A stretch of DNA of 64,000 bases from Bugula neritina. Lineage: Eukaryota; Animalia; Bryozoa. Where the stretch lies: positions 9,744,698-9,808,697 of the forward strand of contig OZ037765.1 of NCBI GenBank assembly GCA_964035545.1, in the 5' to 3' direction. The translations under genes were made by a program, and so were the position numbers. Shown here piece after piece: positions 2,351 to 61,279 of the stretch. Each line of letters starts with the position of its first letter. The first letter of the stretch is position 1. The notes beneath the pieces are model-generated. The model searched no databases. It was not told the DNA's origin and saw only the letters and a list, made by a program, of their open reading frames with translations.

Positions 2351-2656
2351 TGTTATAGTTTTCAGATTTAGGGTCGATGTGCCACCAAGAGAGTCTATTT
2401 ATCACTAGAGAAACTTCACCGAGTTAAGTCGAGTAGATATCGTTATATTTTATCACAAGAATACATAATAAAATCTAATGTACAACAGTAATGATACGCA
2501 CGTCTATTTAATTTACAGCACTATCCTCAACTGAGCTAGTAGCGCGAAGCTGCTACTATTACTCATAAAACAGCCTAGCTAATTGGCTAATACATTGTTC
2601 CGGGTCAATACGCAACCTTGCGTATTGTGTTGCTGGTAGCTCCACGAGCCACCACA
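2351..2656 (-). repeat. 3' LTR of element A
   Basis: Identical to 8901-9206 and adjacent to the polypurine tract. Confidence 0.97.
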
Positions 2657-2684
2657 CTGCCCCCTCCAGCAGAAAGCCCTCTTT
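2657..2684 (-). other. Polypurine tract of element A
   Basis: Minus strand reads AAAGAGGGCTTTCTGCTGGAGGGGGCAG directly before the LTR TGT. Element B has a similar motif. Confidence 0.85.
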
Positions 2685-2932
2685 CTGATAACAATAAAAT
2701 TTACATTAAAAAAAACGTATACTTCGTTGTGGGGGGGGGAGGAGAACAGTATAAAAGTATATACAAAAAAAAACAAACAACCGATAAAATATACAGGTAT
2801 ATATAAAACGTGCACAATATGTAATAAGTAAGAGAAGGTCCTATTTACATGTAGAGTACGTGCCACCATAACGGTAGGGGATGCCACAGAGAGGTAGGGG
2901 AAGAGTAGTATGGAGTTGGAGATAGACTCAAG

Positions 2933-4006
2933 TTAACTGCGGGCCGCACGCTTCATGCGTTTAATAGACTCCTGTAAATATTTGAGTTCACTGGATGCAG
3001 CCTGCACCCGCGGGGCCAGTCTGTACACTTCTTGCTCCAAGTCGTGTGCCCTAGCTTCTACTTCACGTAGGTTGCGGGCCCAGGGGGACGAGCGAGAGGA
3101 AGTCGGCTGTCTGTGTCTTTTCCGTTCTGAGGATGGAAGGGGAGGAGGGAGTGTATACGCATTCGTGTCTACCCTCTGTAGTACGACACGAGGAAAGGTA
3201 TGCGGTATGCGTAGAGGACTGTGAGGTGGAGAGTTAGTAGACTGTATAGGTTTATCTGCGGCTCCAGAGATGATGGGTCGCGGGGAAGGAAAGCCTTGCT
3301 CCAGGCGAGATAGCCGAGCTGGGTCCGTGATGAGTGGTTTGATGGCGTTGAGAAATGCAGGATAGGATGATTCGTCTACTTCATAGACGTGCCCTTGATA
3401 ACACTGCATAGTACGTTGGTGACGCAGTAGGTAATGACGATTGTAGCTATATTCTCCGCAAGGGCAGAAAGTGGTGATGTAATGTTGCGGCAAGTGTACT
3501 TTCAGTCTGCGGTGGGTTGTAAATCGCTGCTGGCAGAGGTTGCATTCGCGATTACTCTCACCTCCTTGATGAGTCCTAATCTCTCTCTCTGTGGCAGGGG
3601 TAATCCAGTTGGAGGTTGCTTCCAACTGGGGTGGCAGTTGCCTGGTTGTAGAAGTTGTTGGGGCTGGCTCTGGGTCCCACGCCATCTCTAGAGAAGGCAT
3701 GCCCGGAGAGACGGGCGCGAGTGTGTCTACAAAAGTAGAATTATTGTTAGATCGCGGTGGATCTTTACAACATAATTCTAGTGACTGTCGACTGTTGCTA
3801 GCCTGAGAGTCACGGCTTTTGGAATGCACTCGAGGAACCGATGAATCATGTGTGGACTGACCAAGAACAGTGTCTAGCTCCAGGTCTAACAGACCGTCGG
3901 CCATTACAGTGTCCTCATCGTCATTCACATGAAACGTGGTTCCCAGTAATTCTGATTCAATCTGCTGAATTAGTTCAGAATTTACTGGCATCGAGCTCGT
4001 TTCCAT
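2933..4006 (-). CDS. Accessory ORF3 of element A, 357 aa zinc-finger protein
   Basis: Intact ATG-to-stop ORF between pol and the 3' LTR. C-x2-C-x12-H-x3-H (CNLCQQRFTTHRRLKVHLPQH) followed by C-x-C-x12-H-x5-C. Acidic N-terminus, basic RKRHR, C-terminal heptad-like helix. No signal peptide or TM segment. Confidence 0.85.
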   Translation of the reverse strand: METSSMPVNSELIQQIESELLGTTFHVNDDEDTVMADGLLDLELDTVLGQSTHDSSVPRVHSKSRDSQASNSRQSLELCCKDPPRSNNNSTFVDTLAPVSPGMPSLEMAWDPEPAPTTSTTRQLPPQLEATSNWITPATEREIRTHQGGESNRECNLCQQRFTTHRRLKVHLPQHYITTFCPCGEYSYNRHYLLRHQRTMQCYQGHVYEVDESSYPAFLNAIKPLITDPARLSRLEQGFPSPRPIISGAADKPIQSTNSPPHSPLRIPHTFPRVVLQRVDTNAYTLPPPLPSSERKRHRQPTSSRSSPWARNLREVEARAHDLEQEVYRLAPRVQAASSELKYLQESIKRMKRAARS

Positions 4007-4023
4007 GAATAGGAATACAAGAC

Positions 4024-7000
4024 TTATACTGGCTTACCTGGGAACTCGGTATTAATGTCCATACTCAACGTTCTTGGTAAGATTGGAGCTGGTTGTGAGA
4101 TACGTCTGCCTTTGGCGATGTCAGCGTAAGAAAAGGCTGAGCATCGTTTCTGAGGCACGAGGTCGGAACTATTTGCTTTACGCGCATTAATTCCTCCCAC
4201 TATTCCGCCCTCGCAAAAGTTGATATTTGCGTGGGGTTCACAACTCCAACATTTTATCGTACGGTTTTCCCCTAGACTTTCATGTGCGCCGCTTCTAATG
4301 CAGTCACATACGAAGTCTTTTAAATATGGTGGGGGTTTCCTCGTACGCTGTCCCCTTTCTAGGGGGGGTGACACGCTTGCCGGTTCGTTAGTAGGGGCCT
4401 CTAATGGCGTCTCTACTTCACCGTTAGCGGTCACCTCTTCTTGTTCTCCGGATGGAGCCCCTCCCTCCGTGGGGGTTTGCACTTCCGGAACCGGCTCGGT
4501 TTCTGGAAGTGATGGAATTAGACTTGGCGGTGGCGGACACGCTTCTGTTGACAAAAGCTGCCGCTCCTCTCTCACCAAGTTTTCTTCCCGCGGTATGACC
4601 ACTTCGTATTTAGGTCCATGCCGCCGTCGCCCGCGCGTTGTTGTCTGCCTCCTGGGCTCTAACAACGGGGGGGGCTTCTCCCACTCCGTCGGGGCTAGCC
4701 CAATACGGTTTCAAGCGAGACTCATTCTGGATAGACACCTGTCCTGAGCGCTCAATCTTGTACGTATGATTGGGCATAGCCTCGACGACCACGTAGGGTC
4801 CTACGAACTTAAGCTTCAGTTTATCAGCCTGTCCGTGACGCCTACGGTAATTGACCATCCACACCTTATCTCCCGTTTGGTAGAGAGGTGGTTCATCGGA
4901 ATCTTCGTGCCGCACCTTCCACTGCCGTTCGCGCAGTATATCGTGTGCGGCCTTCATCCGTTCCACTAGTTCACTGGCATACTCGTGCACCGAGTTGTCT
5001 TGCTCTGGAACGTGGTAGGTGATATGGTCAGAGACGCGAGTCTCTCTCCCGAGCATCAAGTAATTTGGACATCACTCGCTTGACCCCTGCGTGGGCCTGT
5101 TTGTGAGTATCCCAAACCAACTCACGGCGGATGGCCGTGGGGCAGACTACCCTCTTCCTCTCCGGGTGTCTGCCGCTGGCGGCTAGAGAGATGGTTAGTA
5201 ACCCATCCTGCCCGATCCGCAGCGAGTCCCAACGCTGACAGTATAGCCGGAACTCGGCGCATCCCTGTCGTATGCGTTCCTCGCTGGGTCGTCGCCCTTC
5301 CCTTTTGGCCCGGTATATGTCTGCCACGACTCCAGGCAGCTCTTCTTGGAGCTTCTTCAGCTCTCGAACATTACCGGCCAGTACAGGGTTGGCGCGGAGG
5401 TTTTGTACACCCTCCGGGGGCTCATCAACTCCCTGCCTGAGTTGACCCTGGTCCCAGTCAAACGGTGCTCCGTGGTGAGCCAGCGTCTCCAACTCGCATC
5501 GCGGGGGACCTCCATCCCTCCTCTCGATGTTGAGACACTGTTTGCAACCTCCGTCAGGTCGGCGACTCAACCCATCCGCATTGCTGTGTCTCTTGCCCGG
5601 TCGATGTTCGATCCGGTACGAGAATTCAGCTAGGATTTCGAGCCACCGGGCGACCTGACTAGAGGGCTCTGCTCTCTTGCACAACCAGATCAGCGAGGCA
5701 TGATCCGTACGCAGCCGGAACTTCCTGCCGTATAGGTATGGTCTGAAGTGCTTCACTGACTTGATTACTGCCAGCAGCTCCTTGCGGGTAGTGCAGTAAT
5801 TTCGTTCAGCGGGTGAGAGAGACTTGCTGTAGTAGGCTACTACTACCTCTCGGCCTTCCTGCACTTGTGACAGCACAGCGCCAACATTTTGGTCACTGGC
5901 GTCCGTGTCGAGGATGTACTCCAGAGTGGGGTCTGGGTAGGCCAAGATGGGCGCCGTTAGTAGGCAGCCCTTGAGGCGGTCGAACGCTCCTTGTTCGACT
6001 GGGGTCCACTGCCACGTCACTCCCTTTGCGGTGAGCCGGTTTAACGGCTGGGCTATGCCCGCAAAGTCTGGTATGTATTGCCTGTAATACCCTACCAGCC
6101 CCAAGAAAGCCCGGAGTCCGGTCAAGTCTTGGGGGGTGACCCAGTCTTCTACCGCCCGTACCTTTTCGGGATCCGTTGCCACGCCGTTTCGACCGACAAC
6201 GTGCCCCAGGTACTGGACCTCCGGCTGCAATAGAGCGCACTTGGAAGGTTTGAGCTTAAGACCGGCACCTCGGAGTCTATCGAAAACCTCCTGCAGACGT
6301 CTGACATGTGTCTCGAAGTCTGGAGAGATTACGATGACATCATCGAGGTAGACCAGCAGTGTCTTCCAATGGAGTCCGCTAAGGACTTGTTCCATCAGCC
6401 TCTGGAAGGTGGCTGGGGCGGAGGTTAACCCGAAGGGCAGCACCTTCCACTTCCACAAACCGTCCCGTGTGATAAACGCCGCTTTCTCCTGGGCGTCGGG
6501 ACTCAGAGGAACTTGCCAATAGCCGCTTAGCAAGTCTAACGTACTGAAGTACTTGCTGCCGGCTAGGGCGTCCAATGACTCGTCAATACGAGGTAGAGGG
6601 TAAGCGTCCTGTATGGTTACGCTATTGAGTTTGCGGTAATCCACACAGAACCGCCAACTGCCGTCTTTCTTCCGGACCAGTACGACTGGCGAGCTCCACG
6701 CACTATGGGCGGGCTCTATCAGTCCCCGGTCCAGAAGATCCCGTACTTGTCGGCTAACTTCCTTCTCTTTTTCCGGCCCCAGCCTGCGTGTGGGCTGCCG
6801 GACAGGGACTGTCCCTGCAGTCAGCGGTATCTCGTGTCTGACAACTCCAGTCAGCCCCACGTCATGATCTCCGCTACTGAACACATCACCGTAGTCGCGT
6901 AGCAACTTCGCCATGGCTTGGCGTTCCTTGTTGCTCGCGCAGCCGCCACTGGCTGTTTCGTATAACTCCCGGAGATGTGTTGGGACTGCCCCTCGTCCCT

Positions 7001-8052
7001 GAATAGGGTGTCGAGGGGGTGCCTCCGTCGCGTCACTCAGCGACGGGCCCACGTCCTCTTCCTGGACGGAGTGGAACCGGCGCAGCATTGACCCAGCTGG
7101 GAGCTCAATGGGCTCGGTAAAGGGGTTGACACACTGCACTAAGACCTCCCCTCGCTCAGTTAGTCGGTTTAAACTACTGGCGAGTTGGATCCTTTCGTGC
7201 GCGCCTTCAACGACCCCGAGCCTGGCTATCCGGTTGCTGTTCACTCGGCAGTGGATAGTAGCTCTGGAGCGTCCGGGCACGGTGCAGTTTCGAACTACCT
7301 GAACACCGCCCACCAGAGGACGCCCAAATTTATCCACACAGGCGAGTTCTCGCCCGCCCATCAGCACCACCGACTTACTAAAGTCTATTCGGCACTGGTG
7401 TTGCTTCAAGAAGGGCATTCCGAGGATAGCATCTTCCTCCAGTTGGCCTATGACAAAGGTCTCCTGTACAGCCTGGTCTCGGACACGCCCAGGGAGCTCG
7501 ATAATACCATAAAAGGGAATACATGACCCGTCTGCCAGGGTGCCATGTTCCCCAGTATACGGTCGTACTCTATCCCTGTCCCGGCGGGGCAGTGCCTCAA
7601 AGACTCTACGACTGAGAAGGTTGGTAGTACAACCGGAGTCGAGCAGGAAAGTGACGGCGTTGCCGGCCACCTTTCCGGGTAGGAAATATCTCTCTCCATG
7701 TGGTTGTACTTTCACCCCCCCGCATGTGCTGTCCTGGATTGACAGGACGGCGGGGGTTTCACCCGTGGTTTACGGGGTTTCCGGCGGCGAGGTTGGTGCC
7801 GGCGGGGTTTGGGGCTCTCCACTGGGCCTTCTAGCTCCATTTCAGTGGCGGGCTCCTCTTCCCGAGGTAACCGGTGGAACCGGTTGGCGAGTGGCAGGGA
7901 GAAGGTGCGGGCCTACTAGTCCTGCGTGGTACCTGCCACTCGGGTGGAGTGTTCCGTCGTGTCCGTACGGACAGACGACGGCGTGTCTCACCATACTCCT
8001 TCAGTTGCGGCCCGCGGGGAGGGAGAGTGTCCGCGGGCCGTGACAGTTTAAC
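4024..8052 (-). pseudogene. pol: pol of element A (protease, RT, RNase H, truncated integrase), disrupted
   Basis: ORF 5028-7715 has protease LLDSG, RT WRFCVDYRKLN and YLDD, RNase H DTDASD and NYCTTRKELLAV. Integrase core is deleted at 5060-5068. GPY motif in ORF 4610-5059. Apparent 1-nt frameshifts near 7900, at the 7715-7721 homopolymer and at the 4667-4674 homopolymer, judged against element B. Confidence 0.92.
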
Positions 8053-8867
8053 GCCCCCTGGTATTGGGGTCGTCCTTTCTGTCCCTGGTCCTGACCAGCG
8101 CTACTCCAGCCCTGCCTCACAGGCGTTGGGGACACCCGCAGGGCCTGACCGGGGCCAGCACCGGCCAGAATGGTTACCAGTTTTCCCAGCATCTCTACCA
8201 TACGGTCCACTTCGGCTTCCAGCGGGAGGGCTTCGGGACCTGTCGTAGCCCTGGCAGCGCTGACTCCAACTACTGGTGGGTTCCGTTGTGCTCGATGCAT
8301 TTGGGTAGCCAACAGGTAAGCTTCTCCAGCCTTCAGGGCATCTTCTATTCTGGTTATCCCTTTAGCTCGTAGTTGATGTTGTAGGCCCAGGTCGTTTAGT
8401 GACTGGACAAAGGCGTCATAGGTGTAACGCTCTTGGTGTTGTGCTGGCAGATCGCTATACGCAATCTGCGCCAGCTTCTTCACCGTCGCGGCATGTTCTT
8501 GCAGCGGGGTCCGCGGGGTGCGGCACAATCTCTCTAGCTTGGTCCTAGCGTCTATTGCGGAGATGCCAAAACGGGCCCGCAGCGCAGCTAGTATCCCGTT
8601 TACGTCCGTTCCCACTCCGTACGGCTTGGCTTGTTCCGTCACCGCTCTCCGCAGTTGGATAAGGGCCACTCTATGCGGCCATTGAGCAATTTCCATTACC
8701 TCTCTAAATTCTTGTATAAATTGTTCGACATCTTTCGACCCAGTAAAGGTGGGAGCTTTCAAGCAATATCTATAAGCTTCTTCTCCCTCACGATTCACAA
8801 AATTAACATCATTTCTACGCTCACCTTCTACTGGGGGTGGTTGCATTCTAGCATTTTCAGTCTCCAT
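8001..8867 (-). CDS. gag: gag of element A (288 aa)
   Basis: First ORF after the PBS, clearly homologous to element B gag (LKAPTFTGSKDVEQFIQEF vs LQPPNFGGEGDVEQFIREF). Zinc knuckle is degenerate. Confidence 0.9.
   Translation of the reverse strand: METENARMQPPPVEGERRNDVNFVNREGEEAYRYCLKAPTFTGSKDVEQFIQEFREVMEIAQWPHRVALIQLRRAVTEQAKPYGVGTDVNGILAALRARFGISAIDARTKLERLCRTPRTPLQEHAATVKKLAQIAYSDLPAQHQERYTYDAFVQSLNDLGLQHQLRAKGITRIEDALKAGEAYLLATQMHRAQRNPPVVGVSAARATTGPEALPLEAEVDRMVEMLGKLVTILAGAGPGQALRVSPTPVRQGWSSAGQDQGQKGRPQYQGALNCHGPRTLSLPAGRN
8008..8052 (-). promoter_or_regulatory. -1 ribosomal frameshift signal (gag-pol) of element A
   Basis: G_TTA_AAC in gag frame (8046-8052), 5-nt spacer, perfect 10-bp GC stem CGGCCCGCGG/CCGCGGGCCG with a 13-nt loop. 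Confidence 0.75.
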
Positions 8868-8881
8868 CTTTGATGTACACT

Positions 8882-8899
8882 ATCCCACTGCTGCCACCA
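8882..8899 (-). other. Primer-binding site of element A (tRNA-Leu)
   Basis: TGGTGGCAGCAGTGGGAT, 1 nt inside the 5' LTR boundary. Complementary, with one difference, to the metazoan tRNA-Leu 3' end ATCCCACCGCTGCCACCA. Confidence 0.85.
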
Positions 8900-8900
8900 C

Positions 8901-9206
8901 TGTTATAGTTTTCAGATTTAGGGTCGATGTGCCACCAAGAGAGTCTATTTATCACTAGAGAAACTTCACCGAGTTAAGTCGAGTAGATATCGTTATATTT
9001 TATCACAAGAATACATAATAAAATCTAATGTACAACAGTAATGATACGCACGTCTATTTAATTTACAGCACTATCCTCAACTGAGCTAGTAGCGCGAAGC
9101 TGCTACTATTACTCATAAAACAGCCTAGCTAATTGGCTAATACATTGTTCCGGGTCAATACGCAACCTTGCGTATTGTGTTGCTGGTAGCTCCACGAGCC
9201 ACCACA
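8901..9206 (-). repeat. 5' LTR of element A
   Basis: Identical to 2351-2656 and adjacent to the PBS. Confidence 0.97.
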
Positions 9207-9319
9207 ATATCAATTTACCATTATATTGCCAAATTGTTTACTTTCTTATTGATAATAAATAACTTGTTGTTTTTCAAAACTTCTATGTTTTGTAAAAAAT
9301 CTATATTGATAATTAATAT

Positions 9320-9855
9320 TGTGATAGATTCTCATCCTTTACTGTAACTGCGTGTGTCAGTATTATAATTACTGTTGCGTATATTTTGAATGCTGTAATT
9401 GTAGCTAAGTTGGGCTAGCTTTCTAATGCCTTATTATTGTGATTGTTGTTAAAGCTTTCAGTATAATGTAATTTTCATGAAATACTGTGATAGATTGTGC
9501 CTTGGTTTTGTTGTTTGCTAAATAATGTTAATTGAGGTCCGATGTTTGGAGTTCCGAGTTTCGGCTTGTCCGAAGATCGGTCCTCCCGATCTTCGGCCCT
9601 GCCGAATTTCGGAGCTACCGAACTTCGGACCACACACACAAAAGATTCTTTGTTCTATGTTCTTTTGTTCGCTGTATATAAAAGCAGGCGAGTTACGGTG
9701 TAAAGTCAGACTACTACTGGAGCTCGCTGGTAGTAGGACCACATAAGCTGTATCTGATGCAAATAAAGTTATCTTTCATTCGTATTCAAATACTTGGCTT
9801 ATTCTCTCTAGAGCATGTAGGCACTAGTTGCATTCAAAACCCACAGTTTACTACA
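9320..9855 (+). repeat. 5' LTR of element B
   Basis: TG...CA ends. TATATAAAA at 9675-9683, AATAAA at 9762-9767. Copy at 16078-16613. Confidence 0.97.
9539..9628 (+). promoter_or_regulatory. Array of six CCGA-N3-TCGG palindromes in U3 of the element B LTR
   Basis: Motifs start at 9539, 9554, 9570, 9586, 9602 and 9618 (15-16 bp period), ending about 45 bp upstream of the TATA box. The regulatory role is inferred. Confidence 0.6.
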
Positions 9856-9856
9856 T

Positions 9857-9874
9857 TGGTGGCAGCGGTGGGAT
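9857..9874 (+). other. Primer-binding site of element B (tRNA-Leu)
   Basis: TGGTGGCAGCGGTGGGAT is the exact complement of the metazoan tRNA-Leu(AAG/TAG) 3' end including CCA. Confidence 0.9.
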
Positions 9875-9905
9875 TTACGAATAACTAGTTGCCGAGCGGC
9901 ATACA

Positions 9906-10811
9906 ATGGTCCCAGGGGACTCAGCCCCTGAGGCAGCGGGAACACCAGCCCTCACTGTTGAGGCGTTGGTCGCAGCCCTCCAGGGATTGCGAGGGCAAAG
10001 TCAGGCATCACCTGGTGACAGGTATCGCCTCCAGCCCCCGAATTTCGGAGGAGAAGGAGACGTAGAACAATTCATCAGGGAGTTCCAGGATGTGGCCACC
10101 ATCGCTGAATGGCCAGTACGGGTGCGCATCCTCCAACTTCGGGCCTGTCTGACAGGCCGGGCCAAGAGCTTCGCTCTTGGGCCTGATGAAGAGCACATCA
10201 TGCGGGCTCTCAGAGCCCAGTTCGGCCTAACAACCGAAGAAGCAGCTGATCATTTGCAGATAATGAGGAGGGACCGGAGGACTCCCCTGGAAGACCACGC
10301 AAACGAGGTAGAGCGCCTGGCTCAGGCTGCTTTCGGTCACGCCACTGGCGACGACCGGAAGCGCCTCGTTTATAACGCGTTTTTCCGAAGCGTGAATCAC
10401 CCGGACCTGCAGCGATACTGGCTGGCTGCCAAGGTCAGCAGTATAGAAGAAGCGCTGGAAATGGGGAAGGCTTACTTCCAGGTGGAAGAGCCTAGGCGAC
10501 CGAGCTATACAGCCCGCCAAGTGGTCGAGGAGCATGAGGAGACCACCCCACTTCCAACTCCACAGGTAGCAGCAGCTGCAACTAAATCACCCGAGCAGAC
10601 GCAGCTCACCATGTTAATGGACATGATGAAAGGCCTGCAGGCTACGGTGACGAAGTTGCAGAGCGAACAGGCGGATAGGCGGGCTCCCCGATCACGGGAC
10701 AACCCTGTCCGCCCATCTCTGCTAACCTGTTGGGGGTGCGGGGCGCAAGGGCACGTGAGGAGGCACTGCCCTAGAGGCCAAGGGCTTTTAAACACCCAAG
10801 GCTCACGGTAA
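9906..10811 (+). CDS. gag: gag of element B (301 aa)
   Basis: ATG ORF after the PBS with a C-terminal CCHC knuckle CWGCGAQGHVRRHC. Confidence 0.93.
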   Translation: MVPGDSAPEAAGTPALTVEALVAALQGLRGQSQASPGDRYRLQPPNFGGEGDVEQFIREFQDVATIAEWPVRVRILQLRACLTGRAKSFALGPDEEHIMRALRAQFGLTTEEAADHLQIMRRDRRTPLEDHANEVERLAQAAFGHATGDDRKRLVYNAFFRSVNHPDLQRYWLAAKVSSIEEALEMGKAYFQVEEPRRPSYTARQVVEEHEETTPLPTPQVAAAATKSPEQTQLTMLMDMMKGLQATVTKLQSEQADRRAPRSRDNPVRPSLLTCWGCGAQGHVRRHCPRGQGLLNTQGSR

Positions 10812-10831
10812 CTTCCGCCAACCGTGGGCCT
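10787..10831 (+). promoter_or_regulatory. -1 ribosomal frameshift signal of element B
   Basis: T_TTA_AAC in gag frame (10787-10793), 5-nt spacer, 11-bp stem 10799-10809/10821-10831. The -1 frame stays open into the protease. Confidence 0.85.
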
Positions 10832-13800
10832 CACGCCAATCCCATCCGGGATAGGACTCGGAGAGGAGAAGAAGAGACCTCCACAGGGTCTGCTGATACC
10901 GAGTGGCAGAGGCCACAGAGATCTCGGAGACCGCAAGGTCTACCCGATCCTTTGGCCGGGTCATTCGAGACCCGGATGCAACTAGAAGAAGCAGGATGGC
11001 AGGCACCTCGGAGATCTCGGAGACCGCAAGGTCTACCCGATCCTCCGGCCTGGCCACTCCAGAACCGGTTCGCGGGGTTGCCCGAGGAGGTTGTGGAGGA
11101 GGATTCAGCTTACTCGCAAGAGTACCCCAAGCTACCCTCCCGACCTCAGAAAACCCCCGTTGTCTCTAAGACGAAGAGGAGGCCCGCTGTGCGGACCCAA
11201 GTTGTGTCTCCCCCAGAGACTGACCGCTCCAGGAGCACCCAGCCGTATGGAAGCAGCTACTTCTTGCCCGGAAAGATTTCGGGTAAAGCTGCCACATTCC
11301 TACTGGATACTGGGTGCACTACCAACCTGCTGAGTAGGCGTCTCTTTGACACTCTTGGTGCACGAGAGCGGGCGAGCCTCGAGCCGTATGAAGGTGCGCA
11401 TGGTACGTTGGCGGACGGATCATGCATTCCTTTCTACGGCGTCATTTCACTACCTGGACGCGTCCGTGATCAAGCAATTCACGAGACGTTCATAGTCAGC
11501 CAGCTGAAGGAGGACGCCATCCTGGGAATGCCGTTTCTGGAGAAACACCAGTGTCACATGGATTTCCAAAAGTCAGTGGTGGTGATGGCTGGGAAGGAAC
11601 TTGTCTGCGTCGACAAGTTCGGAAGGCCCTTGGTGGGCGGAGTCCAGGTAGTACGGGACTGCACAGTTTCGGGGAGATCCCAGGCGACTCTTTGCTGCAG
11701 AGTCAACTGCAAAGGGATCGCCGGCCTGGGGGTGGTTGAGGGAACGCACGGAGCGATCCGACTAGCAAACAGCCTGAATCGGCTAGATTGTCGGCAGGAG
11801 CTCCTCGTGCAGTGCATCAACCCCTTCACGGAACCTATCCGATTATCGGCTGGAGCGCTGGTGGGGAAGTACCACTCCATCCAGGAAGCGGATGTGGGTC
11901 CGGCACTGGAGACAGTGGCCGACACCCAGGGGAACCCCACTCACACCAGACGAGGAGCAGTCCCGGAGCATATGGCTGACCTGTATGATGGAGCGTGTGG
12001 AAACTGTACAAGTAGTACTGAACGCCAAGTACTGGCTCAACTACTTGCGGAGTACAGTGATGTCTTCAGTTGTGGCGATGGAGACATGGGGCTGACCAAG
12101 GTCATCTCCCACGAGATACTCCTGGCAGCCGGCACCACTCCCATCAGGCAGCCTACCCGGCGTCTAGGCCCGGAGAAGGAGAAGGAGGTGAGCCGACAGG
12201 TACAGGATCTTCTCGACCGGAATCTGATTGAGCCTGCCCACGGTGCGTGGAGCTCTCCAGTAGTCCTGGTCAAGAAAAAGGATGGTAGCTGGAGATTCTG
12301 CGAGGACTACCGCAGACTCAACAGTGTTACCATCTAGGACGCCTACCCTCTCCCACGGATAGATGAGTCTCTGGATGCCCTCGCGGGTAGCAAGTACTTC
12401 AGTACTTTGGATCTGCTTAGCGGGTACTGGCAAGTACCCCTCAGTCCTGATGCCCAGGACAAAGCAGCGTTCATCACCCGCGACGGGCTCTGGAAGTGGA
12501 AAGTACTGCCATTTGGACTAACGTCCGCTCCGGCAACTTTCCAACGGCTCATGGAGCAGGTCCTCAGTGGGTTACACTGAAAGACCCTCCTCATCTATCT
12601 GGACGACGTCATTGTCATCTCCCCAGATTTTTCGACTCATGTCAGTCGTCTGCGGGAGGTCTTTGACCGTCTCCGGGCAGCTGGACTGAAGCTGAAGCCC
12701 TCCAAGTGCGCACTCCTGCAGCCGGAAGTCACGTACCTGGGCCATGTGGTTGGCCGTGATGGGGTCGCTACCGATCCCGAGAAGGTACAAGCTGTAAAGG
12801 AGTGGACTGTCCCCCGTGACCTCCCTGAGTTGCGTGCATTCCTGGGCCTAGTAGGGTACTACCGGCAGTACATACCTGGTTTCGCAGGAGTGGCTCAGCC
12901 GTTAAATCGGCTGACCGCCAAGGGGGTCCGGTGGCAGTGGACGCAGGAGGAGCAGCAGGCATTCGACCACCTCAAGCAACAGCTAATGGAGGCGCCAATT
13001 CTGGCGTATCCTGATCCAGCCAAGGAGTACATCCTGGACACCGACGCCAGCGACCACAGCGTGGGAGCTGTCCTGTCTCAAGTCCAGGGTGGAAGTGAGG
13101 TGGTCGTGGCTTACTACAGCAAGACTCTCGCAGCCGCCGAGAAGAACTACTGCACCACTAGGAAGGAACTCTTAGCAGTAGTCAAGGCGGTCAAGCACTT
13201 TCGGCCATATCTGTATGGGAGAACGTTCCGTTTGCGAACAGACCATGCATCACTGATATGGCTATGTAAACGTGCAGAGCCCTCGAGCCAGGTGGCTCGT
13301 TGGCTAGAGATTCTTGCCGAGTTCTCTTACCGGATAGAGCACCGTGCAGGCCGGAAGCATGGGAACGCTGACGGCATGAGCCGCCGGCCGGTAGAGGACT
13401 GTAAGCAATGCCTACACATTGAGAAGCGGGACGGGGGACCCGCTCGCCTTGATGTGGAAACAGAGTTAGGGGAGGGCGCCGTCTACCGGTGGGAGCACGG
13501 CCATCTTCGGACCGAAACCCACTCAGACGGCGTCCAGGCACTCCACGCCAACCCCACTCTGTACCAGAATGTCAAGGAGCTGTGCCGACTCCAGGAGACG
13601 CTACCCGGCGCGGTAGCAGACATTTTCCGCGCCAAGAAGGAGGGCCGACGACCTAGCGAGGAACAGCAGCGGCAGGGAGATGTTGAGTTCCAACTCCTCT
13701 GTCGTCGCTGGGATGCCCTCAAGGTCAGTCCTGATGGCCTCCTGATGATAACGTTAGCAGCAGACAACCGTCAGCAAGAGAGGGACCGCGTCGTCTGTCC

Positions 13801-15892
13801 ACGCGCCCTCCGACGGGAACTGATCTGGGACACCCATAAGCAGGCTCATTCTGGAGTCAGTCGGGTCATCAGGTGTCTGCGGCTGCGTTGGTATTGGCCC
13901 GGAATGACTCGGGACGTACGACTGCGGGTACGGCAATGCGAGGTCTGCCAAGCTAGCAAGTATGGCCGCCCCACGGAAACCACTGGTCGACGCCGGCTAT
14001 ACGCTGGTCGACCGTGGCAAGTAGTGGCGGTAGACCTCGTCGGGCCTATGCCGTTATCCGCCAGAGGGAACACCTGGATACTGGTGCTCACGGACCACTT
14101 TACCCGGTGGGCAGATGCTCTGGCTATTCCAGACGCAACAGCCCCCACGGTGGCCCGGACCCTGGACCAACATGTGTTCTGTTACCTCGGTTTACCCGAG
14201 CAGATACATACGGACCAGGGTGCCCAGTTCCAGTCCCAGCTCATGGGAGACCTCTGCCGGATATGGGGGGTGAACCAGAGTCGGACCACCCCATATCACC
14301 CGCAAGGAAACGGAGTCGTCGAGCGGAACAACAGGATGTTGGGTGACGCCCTCAGGAGCCTGCTCCTTGGTCGAGGTCAAGAAGAATGGGACGTGGTGCT
14401 GCCGCAAATCATGCAGGCTTACCGCAGCACACCACACTCCGCCACGCAGGAGACCCCAAACTTCCTGATGCTAGGCCGAGAGACGCGGGTTCCAGAACAC
14501 CTGACATACCATGTTCCTGTCCCCGAGTCACCGGTACACGAATACGTGGAGGGTCTGGTAGACATCATGGGCAAAGCTCATGATGCACTGCGTACCCAGC
14601 AGTGGCAGACCCGCACAGAGGACTCGGAAGGGCCCCCGTTGTACCAGGTGGGAGACTGGGTCTGGATGGTGAGCTACCGTAGGCGACGCGGACAGTCGGC
14701 TAAACTTCAGCCCAAGTTTGTCGGTCCCTACTGCGTAGTGGAGGTGCTGCCCAACCACACGTACCGTGTGGAGCGCTCTGAACAGGTCTCGGTCCAGAGC
14801 GAGCAGCGCCTGAAGCCTTACCATGCCAGCCCAGACGCAGTGGGTGAGACTCCACCCCTCCTGGAGCCCCACCGCCAGCCCAACCGTCGAGGACGGGCCA
14901 CCCAGCCCCGAGAGGTGGAAATTGTGGTCCCTAGAGAGGCGGACCAGGAGCAGGCCGCCTTGCTGGAGCAGCTGGAGCGACAGCAGAGAGAGGAGCGGGA
15001 GCAAGAACAGCAGCAAGCCCTAGGACCACCACCACCCTCCCTGGGGGAGGACACCCCCACCCACGTGTTGGGTGAAGGCGGGGACCCCCCTACTAGGGTA
15101 GCCCAGGAGCCACTGGCACCATCAGCGCCTGCTCCAATTGAGAGGAGCCAGCGGTCACGCAGATCCCCCAGATACCTGGCAGACTATGCTGTAGGGCACC
15201 TGGAGTGGCCCCCTCATGAGGACAACCAACCCAGTACGAACGACCACCCCATCTTGGCTGGAAATTCCCTCCATCACCCCGGAGAATTCCACCAAGAAGA
15301 AGATTTCACACAGCTAGCACGTGAGTTACAGCTTAAGTTGAATTCTAATCCTGATACCCCTAAGTATAATTTAAACACTGTTATTCAGACACTAGCATCA
15401 GCTATGGGTATTACCTTGCCAGATACCCAAACAGAGGAGCGTAAGGATACCGAGGAGGCCAGTCAATTCGACTCCCCTCCCCCACCAGCTCCTGTTTCGG
15501 CTCCCTGCAGCCAGCAGGACGACACCCCCTCTTTCGAGGTGTGTTCCGCCAGCGTTAGTGGCCCTGACCCCGAACCGGTTGAGCTCCAACTCACAGCTGG
15601 GGAGGAGCAGGGCACTCTATACGGCGACCACCCCGCAGGCAGAGACGAAGAGGACTCTCCAATACTGGCAATGCCTCGGGCCCTGGTCGCCCGCCAGTAT
15701 ATGATATCTGGAGCACCAGGCAGCCAGATAGAAGAACAGACTCAGCTAACCCACCCACAATTGCCCCGTCACGGGCAGAGTATGGCACTTCCTTACCGAG
15801 AGTGCGTCCTGGATAGTGCAATCCAGGCCTGGTCCCGTATCCTCGACCCATGTACAGAAGGGATAGAAAGCCTGGTGCACCACCTCCAATGA
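10787..15892 (+). pseudogene. pol: pol of element B with in-frame stops
   Basis: Single frame: protease LLDTG, RT YLDD, RNase H, integrase HHCC plus D-D-E (AVDLV, HTDQG, VVERNN), GPY motif, long acidic/Pro-rich tail. TAG at 12335-12337 (Q in element A) and TGA at 12578-12580 (W in element A). Confidence 0.93.
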
Positions 15893-16046
15893 TAAAACCT
15901 GACAATTAGGGGCCGCTGGCAATAGCCACCTGGACTGTATATATTCTCTTGTTACGTGTGATTAATCATAATACTTTTCTGTTAACCGCATATTTTTCTA
16001 CGTTTGTGTTTCATTTTTTTTTGTGTGGAGTCATTGTTTTGTTATC

Positions 16047-16077
16047 AAAAAGGGGATGCTTTTCGATGGGGGGAGAA
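16047..16077 (+). other. Polypurine tract of element B
   Basis: AAAAAGGGGATGCTTTTCGATGGGGGGAGAA directly before the 3' LTR. Confidence 0.85.
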
Positions 16078-16613
16078 TGTGATAGATTCTCATCCTCTAC
16101 TGTAACTGCGTGTGTCAGTATTATAATTACTGTTGCGTATATTTTGAATGCTGTAATTGTAGCTAAGTTGGGCTAGCTTTCTAATGCCTTATTATTGTGA
16201 TTGTTGTTAAAGCTTTCAGTATAATGTAATTTTCATGAAATACTGTGATAGATTGTGCCTTGGTTTTGTTGTTTGCTAAATAATGTTAATTGAGGTCCGA
16301 TGTTTGGAGTTCCGAGTTTCGGCTTGTCCGAAGATCGGTCCTCCCGATCTTCGGCCCTGCCGAATTTCGGAGCTACCGAACTTCGAACCACACACACAAA
16401 AGATTCTTTGTTCTATGTTCTTTTGTTCGCTGTATATAAAAGCAGGCGAGTTACGGTGTAAAGTCAGACTACTACTGGAGCTCGCTGGTAGTAGGACCAC
16501 ATAAGCTGTATCTGATGCAAATAAAGTTATCTTTCATTCGTATTCAAATACTTGGCTTATTCTCTCTAGAGCATGTAGGCACTAGTTGCATTCAAAACCC
16601 ACAGTTTACTACA
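16078..16613 (+). repeat. 3' LTR of element B
   Basis: Near-identical to 9320-9855. Confidence 0.97.
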
Positions 16614-24146: not shown

Positions 24147-26786
24147 TTAGTAATCGTTGTATGGTCGATGGGCAATCCAGTTCTTGATTCTAGGTAATTC
24201 CTTGACCTTCTTAGTGAGAGCTGAAAGTGTAGGAGAATTTTTCACAGCTTCGGCAGCTTTTCCGGTCTGAGTATCCAGCAAACTGGCAGTTACAATATCA
24301 GCAGCTGTCAGCTAAAAACAAAAAACTTGTGTGTGTTAAGGTAATGTGCAAACATCTCAAATATTTGCATTTCACATATGTCTATATGTTTTTTTAAGTT
24401 GAAGTGAAACTGCTGACTGAAATAATAAAAGTGTTATTTAACAAACATGATCATTTTGCATTCAATAGCTTTGTCTGGTTTAAAAAATTTCTATATTGGC
24501 ACATATGCCCAAAGGTAACTTTGTTTATGCCAAACTTTTTTTACTATATTATACTTTACCTTATTTCCCACTAGCCATTCTTGACCATCTTTCAATCTGT
24601 TTTCTAGGAATTTAGTTAGTATTGGGAATCTACCATTGTCGTAATCATTCTGTCTTTGAATCTACAAAAATATCTTTTATAGAACTCAGTTGTTTTATGG
24701 GTAAAAATGGATATTTACTGTGACAATATATTAGAGATATGGCTCTAATAATTATTTAGTTAAAATATTATAAATGTTTATAATATACTTGTTTACATAA
24801 CCACATAACCTATCAGCAAATATTCTAGTGAATTGACAATTTATAGGTATAGGAACAGTCACATCACATTACCCTGGTTGGGTTGTCAGGAGCAAATCTT
24901 ATATTAACTTGATCATTAAAAGCTTCCTGCACAGTCTGCCAAACCATGTGAACTTCAGCAGCTTCCAATTCGTTAGATCCTACTAAATCTACAAAATAGA
25001 AAAAATAAATTAAAGTATTTTATAACCATAATATGCTCTAAAGCCTTATACTCAGTTATATCACTAGACATTACTAGTGAGCCTGCAATATATTAGCTTA
25101 AAGCGTTCAAATTACAAATGTCTCAAATGTAGTAACCTTTATTGCTTTCTTAAAAAAGTAATGAAAATGAAAATAATATTTATTTTAGTCCGAACAACAA
25201 ACACTATATCAGTGATTGGTCGGGAGCTACAATAGTATTTCCCAGAGAAGATGTTACTGCTAACCTACACTCTGCATAATGTTCTGGTACTAATAAGTAA
25301 TAAGTAATGTTAAGGTTCACTCTTGTAGAGCTTATATGTATAGCAAAATGCTCAGTAAAAGCATGCTATTAGATAGCTATAAAATTTCACTTTTACTGTC
25401 ATATAATGAGTTATCATCAACGCTGAGCTAGCAAGAATAATGATAAAATAACAATTCTCTATATAGAATTATTAACCATCGCAAAAAATAAACTGAATCC
25501 AGTCTGCAAATCATGAGCAGTAGAACACTTACTGAGCTCTCTAGCCAGATACATGGCAACAGCAGCAGACTGTCCCAGTGTGACATTCTCTACTTCTAAG
25601 AAGGGCAACTGGCCAAGTATTGTCACTGTAACGGCATTCAAAAATATAATGTAGTTAAAGGAAGTTAGCTGGTTCAATGATTATATTAAAAAATGTTTTG
25701 AAAATTGTTGATATAGAAAACAGTTTTAAAAAAGTTATTAGCATTTTGTATAAGAATAATTTTTGAATTTTAGCACAACTGACTGGGTTTGATTTTAGGC
25801 CAGTCTTCCAACTTGATTCTGATATCCTCCCAGTTTGCTTCTCCCTGTTCCAGAATCCACCTGATTTGCTCTGCTCTGCCCCGTAGGTCAAAGTATGTCA
25901 ACTTGTACAATTCTACACAAAATACATATATTATTACTATTACTTCTTTTAAAATCATTACAAGATTATGAAGTGATAACTTGAGAGATATTTTTACAAG
26001 ATTGGGGTTTGTTGATTTATTTATTAATTTTTTATTTATAGCTTTAAAATGTTTCAGTTTTTTATGTCCATAAAAACTCTGTTTGCTAAATTCGAAAGTT
26101 ATCAAAGCAAACCACTATGTAACATATTACATACATGCATACAGCAACCTTTTTAATTATGAATTAATTATTTTGTATAGTTATCCTAACTGCAGGCTTT
26201 ACTATAGTTGCAAAACATTTATTTTGCCATACATAGCTACAAATATTTTTTAGTCAGTGTATAGAATACAAATATCATGTATATTTTGTATGTAGTATTT
26301 GGGAGCTTTAAAGTTACCAACCTACCTATTACAAAGACAGGTAATCTGTAAACACTTAACAAACTATGTAGAATATCAAAAGTGTCTAATAAGTGCATTA
26401 TGTAAGTATAAATAATACATTGATGTTTTTTTCTCTCATTTTGCAGAAGATATTTATAAAACACACTTTATGCTACATTAAGCAGAAAAAAATACATTTA
26501 AAGCCTTTTTTATAGCACCAAAAATGCTAAATGTAAAAAGACCTCCAATGCATGAAAACTTATATAAGTAAAAAACAATAATGATTTTCTTAAAGGAATC
26601 TTTGTTAGAACATATAATGTACTTACTTCCACACTTTTTACAAATCTTAGGACAGAGTTTTTGATAGTATACATTGTCTCTACACAAGTCTTCTCTGTAG
26701 GTACATAAGAGGTCATCTTCACAAGCTTTCGCCTGGACGAGGGCAGCAATGCCCACTAAAACTAATAAATTGAGTAAAACGTTCAT
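24147..26786 (-). CDS. Signal peptide-ShKT domain-sigma GST fusion (GST-2)
   Basis: Exons 26786-26627 (signal peptide plus CEDDLLC-x6-C-x9-CPKICKKC), 25912-25784, 25625-25533, 24988-24873, 24661-24560, 24311-24147. A phase-1 junction joins ShKT in frame to [19 protein letters not shown]. Ends [10 protein letters not shown]. Confidence 0.88.
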
Positions 26787-26862
26787 GGTGTGTGCAACAG
26801 CGCGTACTGGTCAAGCTGTTACAGGCTCCAAGCTACAGATGAGGTTGGAGATAAAATACAGC

Positions 26863-33380: not shown

Positions 33381-33671
33381 TTCAAAACCTCTTACATGAT
33401 TTGCAGAAAGTTATCAATTCATAAAATACAGTTAAGAAGTTTTAGGTCTAGGAGTGAGCTACGCAAGAATCAAAATCTACTTTGTGTAATTTTATGGGGT
33501 CACATGTTGATGCCAGATTAACACTAATGATTTTTCAAACTTTGTAGTTGAAAAGAAAAGTTATAAATATTGATATGCGCAAAAGCCAAGACTGGACCTG
33601 ATGGTCCGATCTCACAAGTGCAGAATTTTAATTTTCTGCTTTTCACTTGCACCTGCATGAAAATGGCCACT

Positions 33672-46024
<12,353 letters not shown>

Positions 46025-46752: not shown

Positions 46753-49700
46753 ATGCTTGTAATCAACATGAACAGGATTTGCATCACTTTGTTAGCAGCA
46801 TGCTGGCTCTCAGGTAAGCAGTGGTCAGGATTATCAGTGAAAGAGTTGTTGAATCATTTGTACTAATTATTTCACAGTGTGATTTAGGTTAGGGATTACT
46901 ACCATTACATTACGGACGGATTGGTCTAGGTTATACATACTTGTCTATGTCAAAATGAAAAATAGTTATGCTAGCTATTAAAATAGTAACGGCCATGACA
47001 TGATTTCTAGCCAACAGTGAATGTTTTTCATTTGTTTCATTACCATCATTTTTGATCTAGTAAAACATATTTTATAAGAAATGTCTATCTTCTACTTTAG
47101 CTGTGGGCTTTGGATTGATAGTTTCAGTTTGTGATATGTAACACATGCAGTTTTATATACAACACAGGTATTGGGATATCTAGAGCACAATCTACAACTA
47201 TTCAACAGGAATCTGGTAGCACACCGACCACACTTTCCTTAAAAAATGGGACCGAGGGATCCACAACTGCTAAAGCAAATTTGACAGAAACAACAGATTT
47301 TTCATCTAGCCTCAAGAGCACAGCAGTCACCATAGGTATACAGAACACAACGGATCCCACACAGAACACACCAGGTACCGCATTAAACACAACAGACACC
47401 ACACAAATTCCAACAGGCACCACACAGAACACAACAGGTACCACATTAAACACAACAAACACCACGCAAATTCTAACGGGCATCACACAGAACACAACAG
47501 GTACCACACTAAACACAACAGACACCACACAAATTCCAACAAGCACCACACAGAACACGGCAGACACTGCCCAGAACATAACAGATACCACACAGATTCC
47601 AACAAGCACCACGCATAACACAACAGGCACTACACAGAGCACAACGGAAACCACTCAGAACACCACAAGCATCCCACAGATTCCAACAAGCACCCCACAG
47701 AACACAACAAGCACTTCACAAAATGCAATAAATACCACACAGAACATAACAAGTACCACACAGATTCCAACAAGCACCACGAAAAACTCAACTGGTACCA
47801 CACAGAACACCACAAGCACCACACAGATTCCTACAGGCACTACACAGAACACCACAGGCACTACACAGAACACAACAAGCACCACACAGAACACAACAGA
47901 CACCACACAAAACACAACAGATACTACACAGAACATAACAAGTACCATACAAAGTACAACAAGCACCACACAAAACACAACTGATGCCACCCAGAACATA
48001 CCAGATACCACACAGAACACAACCAGTACCCCACAAAACACAAACGCCACACAAATTCCAACAGGCACCATGCAGAGCACAACAGATACTACACAGAACG
48101 AAACATACACTACACTGAACACTACAGACACCACCCATGAGATAACGGAACCCACAGCTACTCAGAATGCAACCAAAAGCACAACCCCGTCTGTTACCAG
48201 CCAGATAACAGTTCAAACTGCGGCAAGTACTAAAGCTACTACTAATTCAACACCAGGAATCACTTCTAATACAAGAGCAAGCACAACAGCAACACCATCT
48301 CCCAAAACTACTAGTTCATCGACGTCTTCCACAACTTTGGATAACAAATCAGATGTTCCACCTAATGGTAGCCAAAATGGTATGTCCTATGCATGCAGTA
48401 TAACCTAACAAACTAGATTAGCCATGAGTCATTATTTCTATTCTTTTATCATAATGATATTTTTGTTGCATCATTTCTGCTCAAAATGGCTAATGCTGCT
48501 AGCAGTTGCTTGATTTGTTTTATTTGGCAGAAAAATCTTGTAGCAGCTTAATTCTAAATACTCACAGAGTCTCACAGTTACCATAAATATACTAATTATT
48601 TAAGAAATTCTAGTAAGCACTGTAACCTAACTATTTAATAGAATAAAAGAGCTTGTGTAGGTTACTTGAAATGTATTAGTATAGGCTCAGTACACTTACT
48701 TTGGAGAGATAAGCTTGACTGCTATTTATCTTGGTATGTTCACCACTTTACCTTATAGAATAGCTATACAGATATAAAATGGGGAGTTATTGTTAAAAAT
48801 TGAGTAATTTTGCCAGGTTGGTTTACTTGAAAATGACCACTTAGTTGTTCTGTTGTTAAAGCTGGCCATATATGGTTATTTTTTCAGTGAATTGGATTTT
48901 TATTTTTGCTATTAGTCAACTATCTTTAATAATATTTATCACAGTTGTGATCAAAGTTAGAGCTTCTATGATCATGAGTCCAATTCACCTGCATCTGTCT
49001 AAAAGTAATGAATTTACCTAAAACTGAATTTAAAAATATTCTTACTAGCCATTTGTATTTCAGATAAAGACAAGCAGAATTCCAAAGGTGTGGTCATTGG
49101 AACAGTCATTGGAGTGATACTGGCTGTCATAGTAGTTATAATAGGAGTGATTATTGTGGTACGGAGAACAGGGTAGGTTGATAAAGATGTATATTTTCAT
49201 TAAAACTTTTTAGATATGATCACTTAGAAGTTTGAGGTTACCAGTTGATGAATTTATAATGTGCAGTTTATTTTTATAATAGTTGAACCTATCAAACATT
49301 TACTAAAAGTACAGAACACTTTCCATGTTTGAACTACCAACTGATAAATATGATTTATAACGACACCATTAAGCCGCCAAGAAGGTTTTATAATTGATGC
49401 TTTTTTACTATAGTAGTCCAACTAATCAACTGCTAACAGTACAAAACCAATACTACACGCTTGAATTATTAAATAATAAGTAATAAACATGACATATCTA
49501 GGGGCCTGCTATATCTGCAAGTCATTTGTGAGGCACTTTTAAGCAAATTTAATTCATTAAAACTTTTTTGAATTCAACAGTGTCTTGTAAATTACCTTAT
49601 TTTCAGCAAGCATCAAGTAAATAAGATGACTAGAATTATCATTCAAAAATAAAGTACTGGTTTGAAATATACTTATATCTGTTGCAATATAGAAGAATCT

Positions 49701-50113
49701 GTTATGCTCAATTAGATTAAATCATAGGGGCAATTATGATGAAGTGAGGATATTGCTTTGTTATAAGGCTTAACAATTACAACTTTAGCCAAAATAAAAT
49801 TGTTTCCAATTGTATAACAATTTAGATATAATTATTTTTGAATGAGTTTTTAATTTGGTTCCTCTACACAACTACAATTACTTAATTGGTTTTGATAATT
49901 ATCAACACGAGATATTTGAGACATAATCAGACAAAATGTTGCTATTACTTTAGGATCATGAAAAGAAGACAAGGCTATGGGATGTTTGAAAATTTGGGTA
50001 CAGATGACAGTGATGGTGATTGGACTTTCAACAACCCATCCTATGGAGAAAATAGTAACTCCTCCCTTTTCAGATCTAACAAAGATGGCTATAAGCATTC
50101 CAAGTCATACTAA
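46753..50113 (+). CDS. Thr-rich mucin-like type I transmembrane glycoprotein
   Basis: Exons 46753-46813 (signal peptide), 47168-48379 (TTQNTTx/TTQIPTx 7-aa repeats), 49064-49172 (TM VVIGTVIGVILAVIVVIIGVIIVV-RR), 49954-50113 (cytoplasmic tail with YGMF and FNNPSY). All junctions are in frame. Confidence 0.88.
47335..48135 (+). repeat. 21-bp coding tandem repeat (mucin stalk)
   Basis: ACCACACAGAACACAACA-type units encoding TTQNTT/TTQIPT. Confidence 0.9.
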
Positions 50114-50322
50114 TATTTTATTATAACTGAGTTTTATCATTTTTATGATATATGTATTGTATTATAATGTATTAAACAGAGAATGTCTTTGTATATGTGT
50201 TATATATGTATGGGAAAAATAATAAATTATGATGAGCATAATTGAACAGCTTATAACTTTTGTGCACAACAAAATACGGTTGAGTTGAAAGGAGTTTGTT
50301 CACTAGATATTATATAATTAAA

Positions 50323-58577: not shown

Positions 58578-58737
58578 GATCATGAAAAGAAGACAAGGCT
58601 ATGGGATGTTTGAAAATTTGGGTACAGATGACAGTGATAGTGATTGGACTTTTAACAACCCATCCTATGGAGAAAATAGCAACTCCTCCCTTTTCAGATC
58701 TAACAAAAATGGCTATAAGCACTCAAAATTATATTAA
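58578..58737 (+). other. Orphan duplicate of the mucin terminal coding exon
   Basis: Intact TTTAG acceptor, open frame and same stop as 49954-50113. No second TM or stalk exon found upstream. Confidence 0.85.
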
Positions 58738-61230: not shown

Positions 61231-61279
61231 CTAAAAAATAAACAAAAACCTTAAACTTAAAATTTATTTGATGAAAAAC

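Follow-up and report, generated by a model that had tools for sequence, protein, structure and literature searches.

What is encoded by the third open reading frame of a Gypsy-type retrotransposon when that frame follows pol and is not env? LTR retrotransposons are generally thought to depend on host transcription factors, and it is complex retroviruses that are marked by DNA-binding activators of their own. The question is raised by a locus of Bugula neritina, where one of two neighbouring Gypsy elements (element A) carries a long frame, ORF3, between pol and its 3' LTR. We analysed this frame, its product (P0001) and its relatives, starting from the window, a stretch of 64,000 nucleotides. 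ORF3 is a real and old accessory gene, conserved in its position, and its products form an unnamed family of zinc-finger proteins.

Two defective Gypsy elements

Element A has TG..CA direct LTRs and a 4-bp target-site duplication, with the primer-binding site and the polypurine tract beside the LTRs, as in Ty3/Gypsy elements (Metaviridae). The order of its genes, gag followed by PR-RT-RNaseH-IN, is also that of Ty3/Gypsy (Table 1). Pfam detects protease, RT and RNase H in element A and a complete integrase in element B, whose pol finds its best PDB match in Ty3-G Gag-Pol (E 5e-80). A CCHC knuckle is absent from the gag of element A and present in the gags of element B and of L008, a distant locus described below. 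The primer-binding site of element A differs at one position from the site common to element B and L008, and the 12-mer of the latter two is of the Leu type according to PMC13524379. Elements A (2351-9206) and B (9320-16613) are related and young, and lie back to back, 113 bp apart.

The pol of element A is broken at several places, as the first-pass annotation had described. The integrase core, corresponding to residues 434-625 of the element B pol, is missing at about 5060, a position flanked on both sides by loose ends of contigs from runs X1 and X2, and there are further frame breaks. The element B pol has two stops. Both elements are defective, because pol is broken in each. The two LTRs differ at 0 of 306 positions in element A and at 2 of 536 in element B, and each element has an ATAT target-site duplication. 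Since pol is broken despite the near-identical LTRs, the elements probably moved in trans.

ORF3 itself translates without a stop, as annotated. Its ATG at 4006 is separated by 17 nt from the end of the pol-tail frame at 4024. A long fusion with pol is barred by two stops, namely the pol stop and a stop in the frame of ORF3 28-30 nt 5' of its ATG. A CAG/GTAAG string 37 nt 5' of the ATG is a candidate splice site. Element A, ORF3 included, is represented in each of its 30 bins by contigs of run X1. One of them jumps over 2691-4275, and therefore ORF3-less derivatives exist. In small shares of runs X2, X3 and X5, one RNA-library contig spans 3006-3281 with 20 differences; contigs cannot show transcription.

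The intactness of ORF3 beside a broken pol had been presented as a telling contrast. This argument fails. With three to five lesions distributed uniformly across the 5.9 kb of coding sequence (1.07 kb of ORF3 plus 4.85 kb), the probability that ORF3 has no lesion is 0.55-0.37, which is within chance. Intactness was rejected as a sign of selection on this ground (chance P of about 0.4-0.55).

Element B had been said to lack the gene. Its fingers are gone, with no match to the core HMM in six frames. However, a remnant in frame with pol matches four family proteins, P0082, P0092, P0099 and P0124 (36-67% identity, E 1e-8 to 1e-19), and reaches the first helix of the conserved domain. Another protein, P0192, runs from finger 2 of the B subfamily into sequence that is 64% identical over 50 codons to the LTR of element B. 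Therefore, the family of element B has the gene, and this copy lost the core. The pol frame of element B stays open for about 50 codons past the remnant (15737-15892), a segment with no family match.

Table 1. Coordinates of ORF3, its parts, and the elements and LTR features discussed in the text
Feature	Position in the window	Strand	Remarks
ORF3, accessory gene of element A, 357 aa (P0001)	2933..4006	-	stop-free translation; 61 homologues
ORF3 aa 1-50, acidic and hydrophobic N-terminus, candidate activation domain	3857..4006	-	12 D/E, 0 K/R
ORF3 aa 119-250, conserved folded domain	3257..3652	-	pLDDT 94.4, pTM 0.86
ORF3 aa 272-276, PRVVL (PxVxL)	3179..3193	-	predicted disordered linker; conserved in close subfamily only
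ORF3 aa 295-299, RKRHR, basic stretch, candidate nuclear localisation signal	3110..3124	-	
ORF3 aa 308-356, predicted coiled coil (long helix with heptads)	2939..3085	-	
Element A 3' LTR, 306 bp, TG..CA	2351..2656	-	identical to 5' LTR
Element A 5' LTR, 306 bp	8901..9206	-	
Element A target-site duplication (TSD), ATAT	2347-2350 + 9207-9210		
Element A polypurine tract (PPT)	2657..2667	-	
Element A pol, three pieces	4024..7769	-	
Element A pol piece, PR-RT-RNaseH and integrase start	5028-7769	-	
Element A pol piece, integrase C-terminus	4610-5071	-	
Element A pol piece, tail	4024-4710	-	
Element A gag	8001..8879	-	35% identical to element B gag
Element A primer-binding site (PBS), tRNA-Leu type	8882..8899	-	
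Perfect 22-bp palindrome, LTR A (10-bp arms, 2-bp spacer), candidate binding site	2606..2627	.	also 9156-9177
Five perfect and one degenerate CCGA-N3-TCGG, 16-bp period, LTR B	9539..9628	+	repeated 16297-16386
ORF3-family remnant in element B, in frame with pol, stops before fingers	15398..15736	+	

Other features of the window

The rest of the window holds several further features. Exons at 33567-45644 belong to a probable host gene, which we take from its sequence resemblance to be of the MutL/PMS1 type; a match to HATPase_c_3 at 33567-33836 is below the cut-off. A local duplication places 49875-52425 and 58499-61247 about 8.6-8.9 kb apart, 77-98% identical, with two carbonic anhydrase exons (PF00194). 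A Thr-rich, mucin-like open frame of 428 codons, based on a 21-bp repeat, lies at 47122-48408. The region 25770-26810 contains an N-terminal exon of a glutathione S-transferase (PF02798, below the cut-off). A short exon in the same region is rich in Cys, begins like a signal sequence and matches nothing in Pfam.

A double zinc-finger domain and a predicted coiled coil

In the AlphaFold2 model of full-length P0001, a confident domain at about residues 121-240 and a helix at 308-356 are predicted, and the remainder is disordered. The scores in Table 1 are those of residues 119-250 modelled alone. The parts of the domain are, in order, a W/helix lead-in, a C2H2 finger (155-175), a C-x-C finger (181-202), a Y-x-V-D strand and two helices. 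A canonical C2H2 finger and a C2HC finger had been annotated at 3544-3401. The first is canonical, with C-x2-C-x12-H-x3-H at residues 155-175. The second, C-x-C-x12-H-x5-C at residues 181-202, is not a canonical C2HC finger. It is rather a C-x-C-G finger that begins directly after H175 without a TGEKP-type linker, and both fingers belong to one domain of about 125 residues. The fourth ligand of finger 2 is a Cys or His 3-9 residues past H196 in 117 of 132 sequences. The helix of finger 1 is basic, with Arg at +3 in 110 and Arg or Lys at +2 in 116 of 139 sequences.

Database searches connect this domain with C2H2 proteins in general terms. No Pfam family covers the two-finger domain, and P0001 has no Pfam match above the cut-off; zf-C2H2_4 matches 29 of 136 family members at E<=0.05. 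A reading as a BED finger, suggested by resemblance, was rejected because Pfam gives it no support. PDB profile matches of ORF3 are generic C2H2 fingers and weak, the best at E 1.7e-4. Foldseek gives no match to the domain at E<=1e-3 (E>=0.4), and its top rows are DNA-bound ZBTB7A, Kaiso and CTCF. A wide structure search with the full ORF3 model returned the coiled coil alone, and a search of a viral structure library with ORF3 gave no significant match. The fold check that had been suggested, by AlphaFold and profile search, yields a confident domain on the one hand and only weak generic C2H2 matches on the other. C2H2 fingers can bind RNA and proteins as well as DNA. A homodimer prediction for residues 119-357, run without an alignment, scored 0.16 against a mark of 0.32 and speaks neither for nor against pairing. 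Both the two-finger fold and the coiled coil are model predictions.

The remaining motifs of the first-pass annotation are all found where it had placed them. The N-terminus is acidic, PRVVL and RKRHR are present, and 13 of the 14 a/d positions of the terminal helix are hydrophobic. The claim that ORF3 is not Env also stands. Its highest 19-residue hydropathy is 0.58, so it has no TM or signal-like stretch, and the Pfam scans detected no Env family.

Conservation of the ORF3 family

Homologues of P0001 number 61 proteins among 2338 candidates. A search with P0001 returns 199 representatives (50% clustering) at E<=1e-3 and 70 at E<=1e-10, and 140 of 203 proteins pass a core-domain profile. P0154, P0194 and P0196, ordinary multi-finger proteins among the weak matches, were dropped. 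Of the 61 homologues, 11 are full length, beginning at the shared start Met and continuing to where the coiled coil ends. Broken copies elsewhere in the family had been named as a point that would count against the gene, and the other 50 are cut or frameshifted. Constraint persists nonetheless, and we judge that test too strict, because dead copies or cut contigs are expected.

The constraint is centred on the fingers. No variation is seen at C155, H171, H175, C181 and C183 across 22 sequences that were selected on overall score. At least 90% conservation in 136 sequences is found for C155, C158, H171, H175, C181, C183, G184, H196, V210 and D211. Counts of 122/122 for the Cys and His residues were discarded as circular, since the rows had been picked by that motif. 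The 11 full-length sequences show an identity of 0.83-0.84 over the fingers versus 0.47 and 0.61 over the linkers; between P0001 and the other ten, it is 0.77-0.79 versus 0.25-0.29. Such a difference implies purifying selection on the protein, as far as sequence comparison can tell. The flanking layout is also retained. Of 62 proteins, 44 have an acidic-hydrophobic 30-mer N-terminal to the domain (outside the close group, 16 of 26); C-terminal to it, such a 30-mer is present in 3 of 66. The terminal heptad helix outscores its own shuffles in 53 of 60 by a crude score. The family rows are related, many of them closely, and these counts show conservation and are not independent trials.

A quick tree was built from 93 rows and 143 columns, in which 6 of the 59 rows of the close group were kept, along with cluster members added later. 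It gives no direction, and 39 of its 84 inner branches are unresolved. The six element-linked rows are divided between the two sides of the deepest split that has support (SH-aLRT 99). With about 140 homologues and L008 as an element-linked distant copy, the proposal of a conserved, element-carried accessory gene holds up. Conservation of an element-borne accessory ORF across a diverged family is supported.

Position in other elements

A search with the family signature returned 37 loci (metagenome 14, viral 7, GTDB 16). One of them, L008, is a true member, and the other 36 were treated as chance matches. No relative was found in viral contigs by a P0001 search or in metagenome contigs by a search with alignment A2, and a narrow motif search of viral contigs gave 0 matches. 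In L008, the family ORF is followed by a stop, a PPT, a 719-bp LTR, the same PBS as in element B, gag and protease. Its family member has 34% core identity to P0001, its gag is 32% identical to that of element B, and the family ORF extends over at least 726 aa with an open 5' end. ORF3, LTR and gag lie on one strand at 1-4530 of L008 with a single 719-bp LTR. This single-LTR order reflects either tandem copies with a common LTR or a circularly permuted assembly.

Several protein fragments also show the flanks of the gene. In P0173, an A-like pol tail runs into the start of ORF3; P0212 continues into an A-like 3' UTR; and in P0200 and P0096 integrase-tail sequence is in frame ahead of the domain. 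It had been asked whether homologues always lie between pol and a 3' LTR. L008, where the gene precedes the PPT and LTR, and P0173, P0212 and P0192 agree with this position.

Bryozoan proteins with the domain

Among the 30 homologues looked up, the only named ones are XP_067940964/63 and XP_067944745 of Watersipora subatra and KAF6040922/23 of Bugula neritina. The two Bugula entries have adjacent locus tags. The domain is present once or twice in the annotated bryozoan proteins P0204, P0205, P0214 and P0150, and a common extra N-terminal segment is seen in the Bugula protein and one Watersipora protein. From their isoform names, adjacent locus tags and common extra N-terminus, the named proteins look like host genes. 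It is possible that these genes were domesticated from elements or were donors to them. The presence of the domain in annotated bryozoan genes makes domestication or capture testable.

The PxVxL motif

PxVxL was annotated as an HP1-binding motif of ORF3. The motif exists, and its range is narrower than the family. Of 38 close homologues, 29 have the strict form (2.7 expected); of 10 intermediate ones, 0 have it, and the relaxed form [PLC]xVx[LIMV] occurs in 7 (2.0 expected). Distant members have the strict form in 2 of 32 (1.5 expected) and the relaxed form in 7 of 32 (5.7 expected). In ORF3, the motif lies in an accessible disordered linker (pLDDT about 51-56) and is a conserved island, with an identity of 0.62 versus 0.25 and 0.29 on its flanks. 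The extended xRVVLxRI presumably resembles the beta-strand ligands of the ET/AHD domains of activators. Because the strict PxVxL is confined to the close subfamily, HP1 engagement is unlikely to be the core function of the family. Judged by this distribution, HP1 anti-silencing is possible in the subfamily at most. In PMC7465937, LxVxL-type variants are listed among the HP1-binding variants, and PxVxL by itself is not enough for HP1 binding.

Palindromes in the LTRs

The LTRs of elements A and B and of L008 contain CG-centred, non-random palindromes. CCGA-N3-TCGG occurs 11 times in the whole window versus 0.04 expected, and nine of these are in the LTRs of element B, where the array ends about 47 bp 5' of TATATA. 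The arms are constant and the spacers variable, which may suit sites under selection better than a tandem repeat that arose recently. The L008 LTR has 21 CCGA/TCGG versus 4.4 expected, a number reached in 0 of 300 shuffles; its CCGA/TCGG palindrome array at 1599-2317 lies 5' of a TATA box, as in LTR B. LTR A has no CCGA excess (1 versus 0.8 expected), and its palindrome differs from that of B and L008. A 10-bp CG-containing arm like that of LTR A is reached in 0 of 300 shuffles. The three share the pattern W-W-C-G-S, 5-6 bases, S-C-G-W-W, which was drawn after the fact and which, in element A, is confined to the two LTRs. CpG is depleted in host DNA (observed/expected 0.35) and stands at 0.69-1.04 in the elements. 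As sequences, the palindromes fit a dimer that would bind the LTR.

A proposed regulator of its own LTR

The product of ORF3 likely regulates its own element, and the odds that it activates through LTR DNA are about even. We favour the reading that ORF3, in a Gypsy lineage with tRNA-Leu-type primer sites, encodes an activator of the element's own LTR that would work like Tas; we consider its truth and its failure equally probable. ORF3 protein would be made from a separate message or by re-initiation, and RKRHR would bring it into the nucleus. The Arg-rich helix of finger 1 may contact the palindromes in the element's own LTR, the C-terminal coiled coil would pair the protein, probably as a dimer, on inverted U3 sites, and the acidic N-terminus would activate transcription. 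Acting in trans, the protein could also drive defective copies such as B, in which the sites are kept and the fingers lost. PxVxL may serve as a cofactor hook specific to the subfamily. If true, this would explain the continued spread of defective copies such as A and B, and the domain and the site array with its 16-bp period form a small testable pair. A wider picture, that an old animal Gypsy lineage has its own sequence-specific factor with an undescribed double zinc-finger domain, acting by positive feedback on UAS-like LTR palindrome arrays as a convergent counterpart of Tas in a retrotransposon without an envelope, and that bryozoan hosts recruited the domain, is tentative and in our judgement somewhat improbable.

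LTR activation draws on a family trait under constraint in a fixed slot between pol and the PPT and LTR, on a family-wide transcription-factor layout (acidic N-terminus, basic finger-1 helix, heptad helix), on best profile and fold matches that are DNA-binding C2H2 proteins, all weak, and on non-random palindromes in three LTRs. However, the strongest array is in element B, whose own copy lost the fingers. The main weakness is that the LTR of element A, which has the intact gene, carries a different palindrome, yet A, the B family and L008 hardly differ in the helix of finger 1. In the named Watersipora proteins, this helix is less basic, and a host factor or RNA hairpins might account for the arrays. 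In a rival reading, ORF3 protein would oligomerise on unspliced element RNA and export or protect it, in the manner of Rev or CERV; the palindromes are also transcribed within the 3' LTR. This we regard as unlikely. The basic stretch is accompanied by a Leu-rich M-x3-L-x2-L-x-L (aa 35-44) in 12 of 18 close homologues, which presumably fits a nuclear-export pattern, but its last hydrophobic position is missing in the other 6, and arrays 5' of TATA at a fixed 16-bp period are expected of DNA sites. The nuclear protein CERV, an accessory product of a Gypsy-type element, is required for gRNA export (PMC10309623). Spliced ORF3 messages, described as usual in PMC5408684, would make export necessary, but no splice joint was found in the contigs, the sole data type.

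An HP1-engaging chromatin factor, either an anti-silencer or a self-limiting repressor, would bind element DNA and use PxVxL to titrate or recruit HP1. Such a role would suit a conserved island in a disordered linker, the LxVxL-type variants in 7 of the 10 intermediate homologues, and a host that is CpG-depleted with elements that are not. It is quite unlikely, since distant members are at chance level for both forms of the motif, xRVVLxRI is presumably also like ET/AHD ligands, and the motif alone is insufficient for binding (PMC7465937). The in-frame junction of family sequence with the integrase tail in element B, P0200 and P0096 speaks against a free activator and for integration targeting or tethering, like that by a chromovirus chromodomain, with the protein fused or bound to integrase and steering insertion. 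The long L008 ORF, open at its 5' end, and the insertion of A and B at ATAT sites 113 bp apart point the same way. We nevertheless hold tethering to be very unlikely. ORF3 is a separate ORF in element A, 11 of 61 close homologues begin at the same Met as free proteins, a weak search found no fused protein of 1244-3550 aa, the in-frame fusions come from damaged or contig-cut copies, and tethering does not require an acidic N-terminus. A captured host zinc-finger gene, carried as a passenger with little or no function for the element, would explain why all named homologues are annotated bryozoan proteins, two of them with a common extra N-terminal segment across genera, and the loss of the fingers in B and the run X1 contig without the ORF indicate that it is dispensable in cis. 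It is the most improbable of these readings; element-linked members with about 34% core identity occupy the same position on both sides of the deepest split, and finger and heptad constraint persists among element copies.

Comparison with known systems

In the literature surveyed, which includes PMC12440569, PMC13524379, PMC6338049 and PMC7175516 and lies outside Repbase, Dfam and subscription journals, the domain or a C2H2-type ORF3 in animal Gypsy elements is undescribed. Earlier annotation of the domain elsewhere is possible. Extra ORFs in this slot are already known, and what is new is the protein family and the likely cis-trans pair. The Env of errantiviruses is the third ORF in the same Ty3/gypsy slot. 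In contrast, ORF3 has no signal peptide, TM segment or Env similarity. Bryozoan errantiviruses have the gene order GAG-ENV-POL with a gB-type Env, as given in PMC13524379.

Among the non-env ORF3s of bdelloid rotifers, PMC5408684 names GDSL esterases, DEDDy exonucleases, and TM or coiled-coil proteins. They too are extra genes that lie between pol and the 3' LTR, are particular to single families and have come and gone across branches (PMC5408684), but the words "zinc" and "finger" are absent from its main text. CERV of the C. elegans element Cer1 is a spliced protein of 517 aa that has exons in common with gag. It exports RNA and contains a putative C4 finger as well as a GTPase-like domain. 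Both are accessory proteins of animal Gypsy-type elements and neither is an Env, and ORF3 would share with CERV the nuclear location, the leucine zipper, the basic NLS and the Cys-rich region (PMC10309623 for CERV). However, ORF3 is a free ORF after pol and has a C2H2 and a C-x-C finger, without a GTPase-like or M domain. Compared with the M and GTPase-like G layout of CERV, the P0001 model has only one domain of about 125 aa and one long helix.

Finger 1 of ORF3 has the canonical spacing of Kruppel-type C2H2 proteins such as ZBTB7A, Kaiso and SALL4. The differences from these proteins are the missing TGEKP-type linker, the C-x-C-G finger 2, and the predicted single domain of about 125 aa with extra helices and a strand.

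The Tas gene of foamy viruses is located close to the retroelement's 3' end. Tas (Bel1) is a sequence-specific protein with DNA-binding, activation and dimerisation domains that binds the upstream region of the LTR, according to the part of PMC4929722 available to us. It differs from ORF3 in that it belongs to Retroviridae, has a C-terminal activation domain and also binds an internal promoter, and a zinc finger is absent from the account of Tas in that part of PMC4929722. ORF3 is likewise an accessory gene near the 3' end, and by analogy its product would bind its own LTR and activate it. If true, this would show how a Gypsy lineage can come by such regulation in the absence of an envelope.
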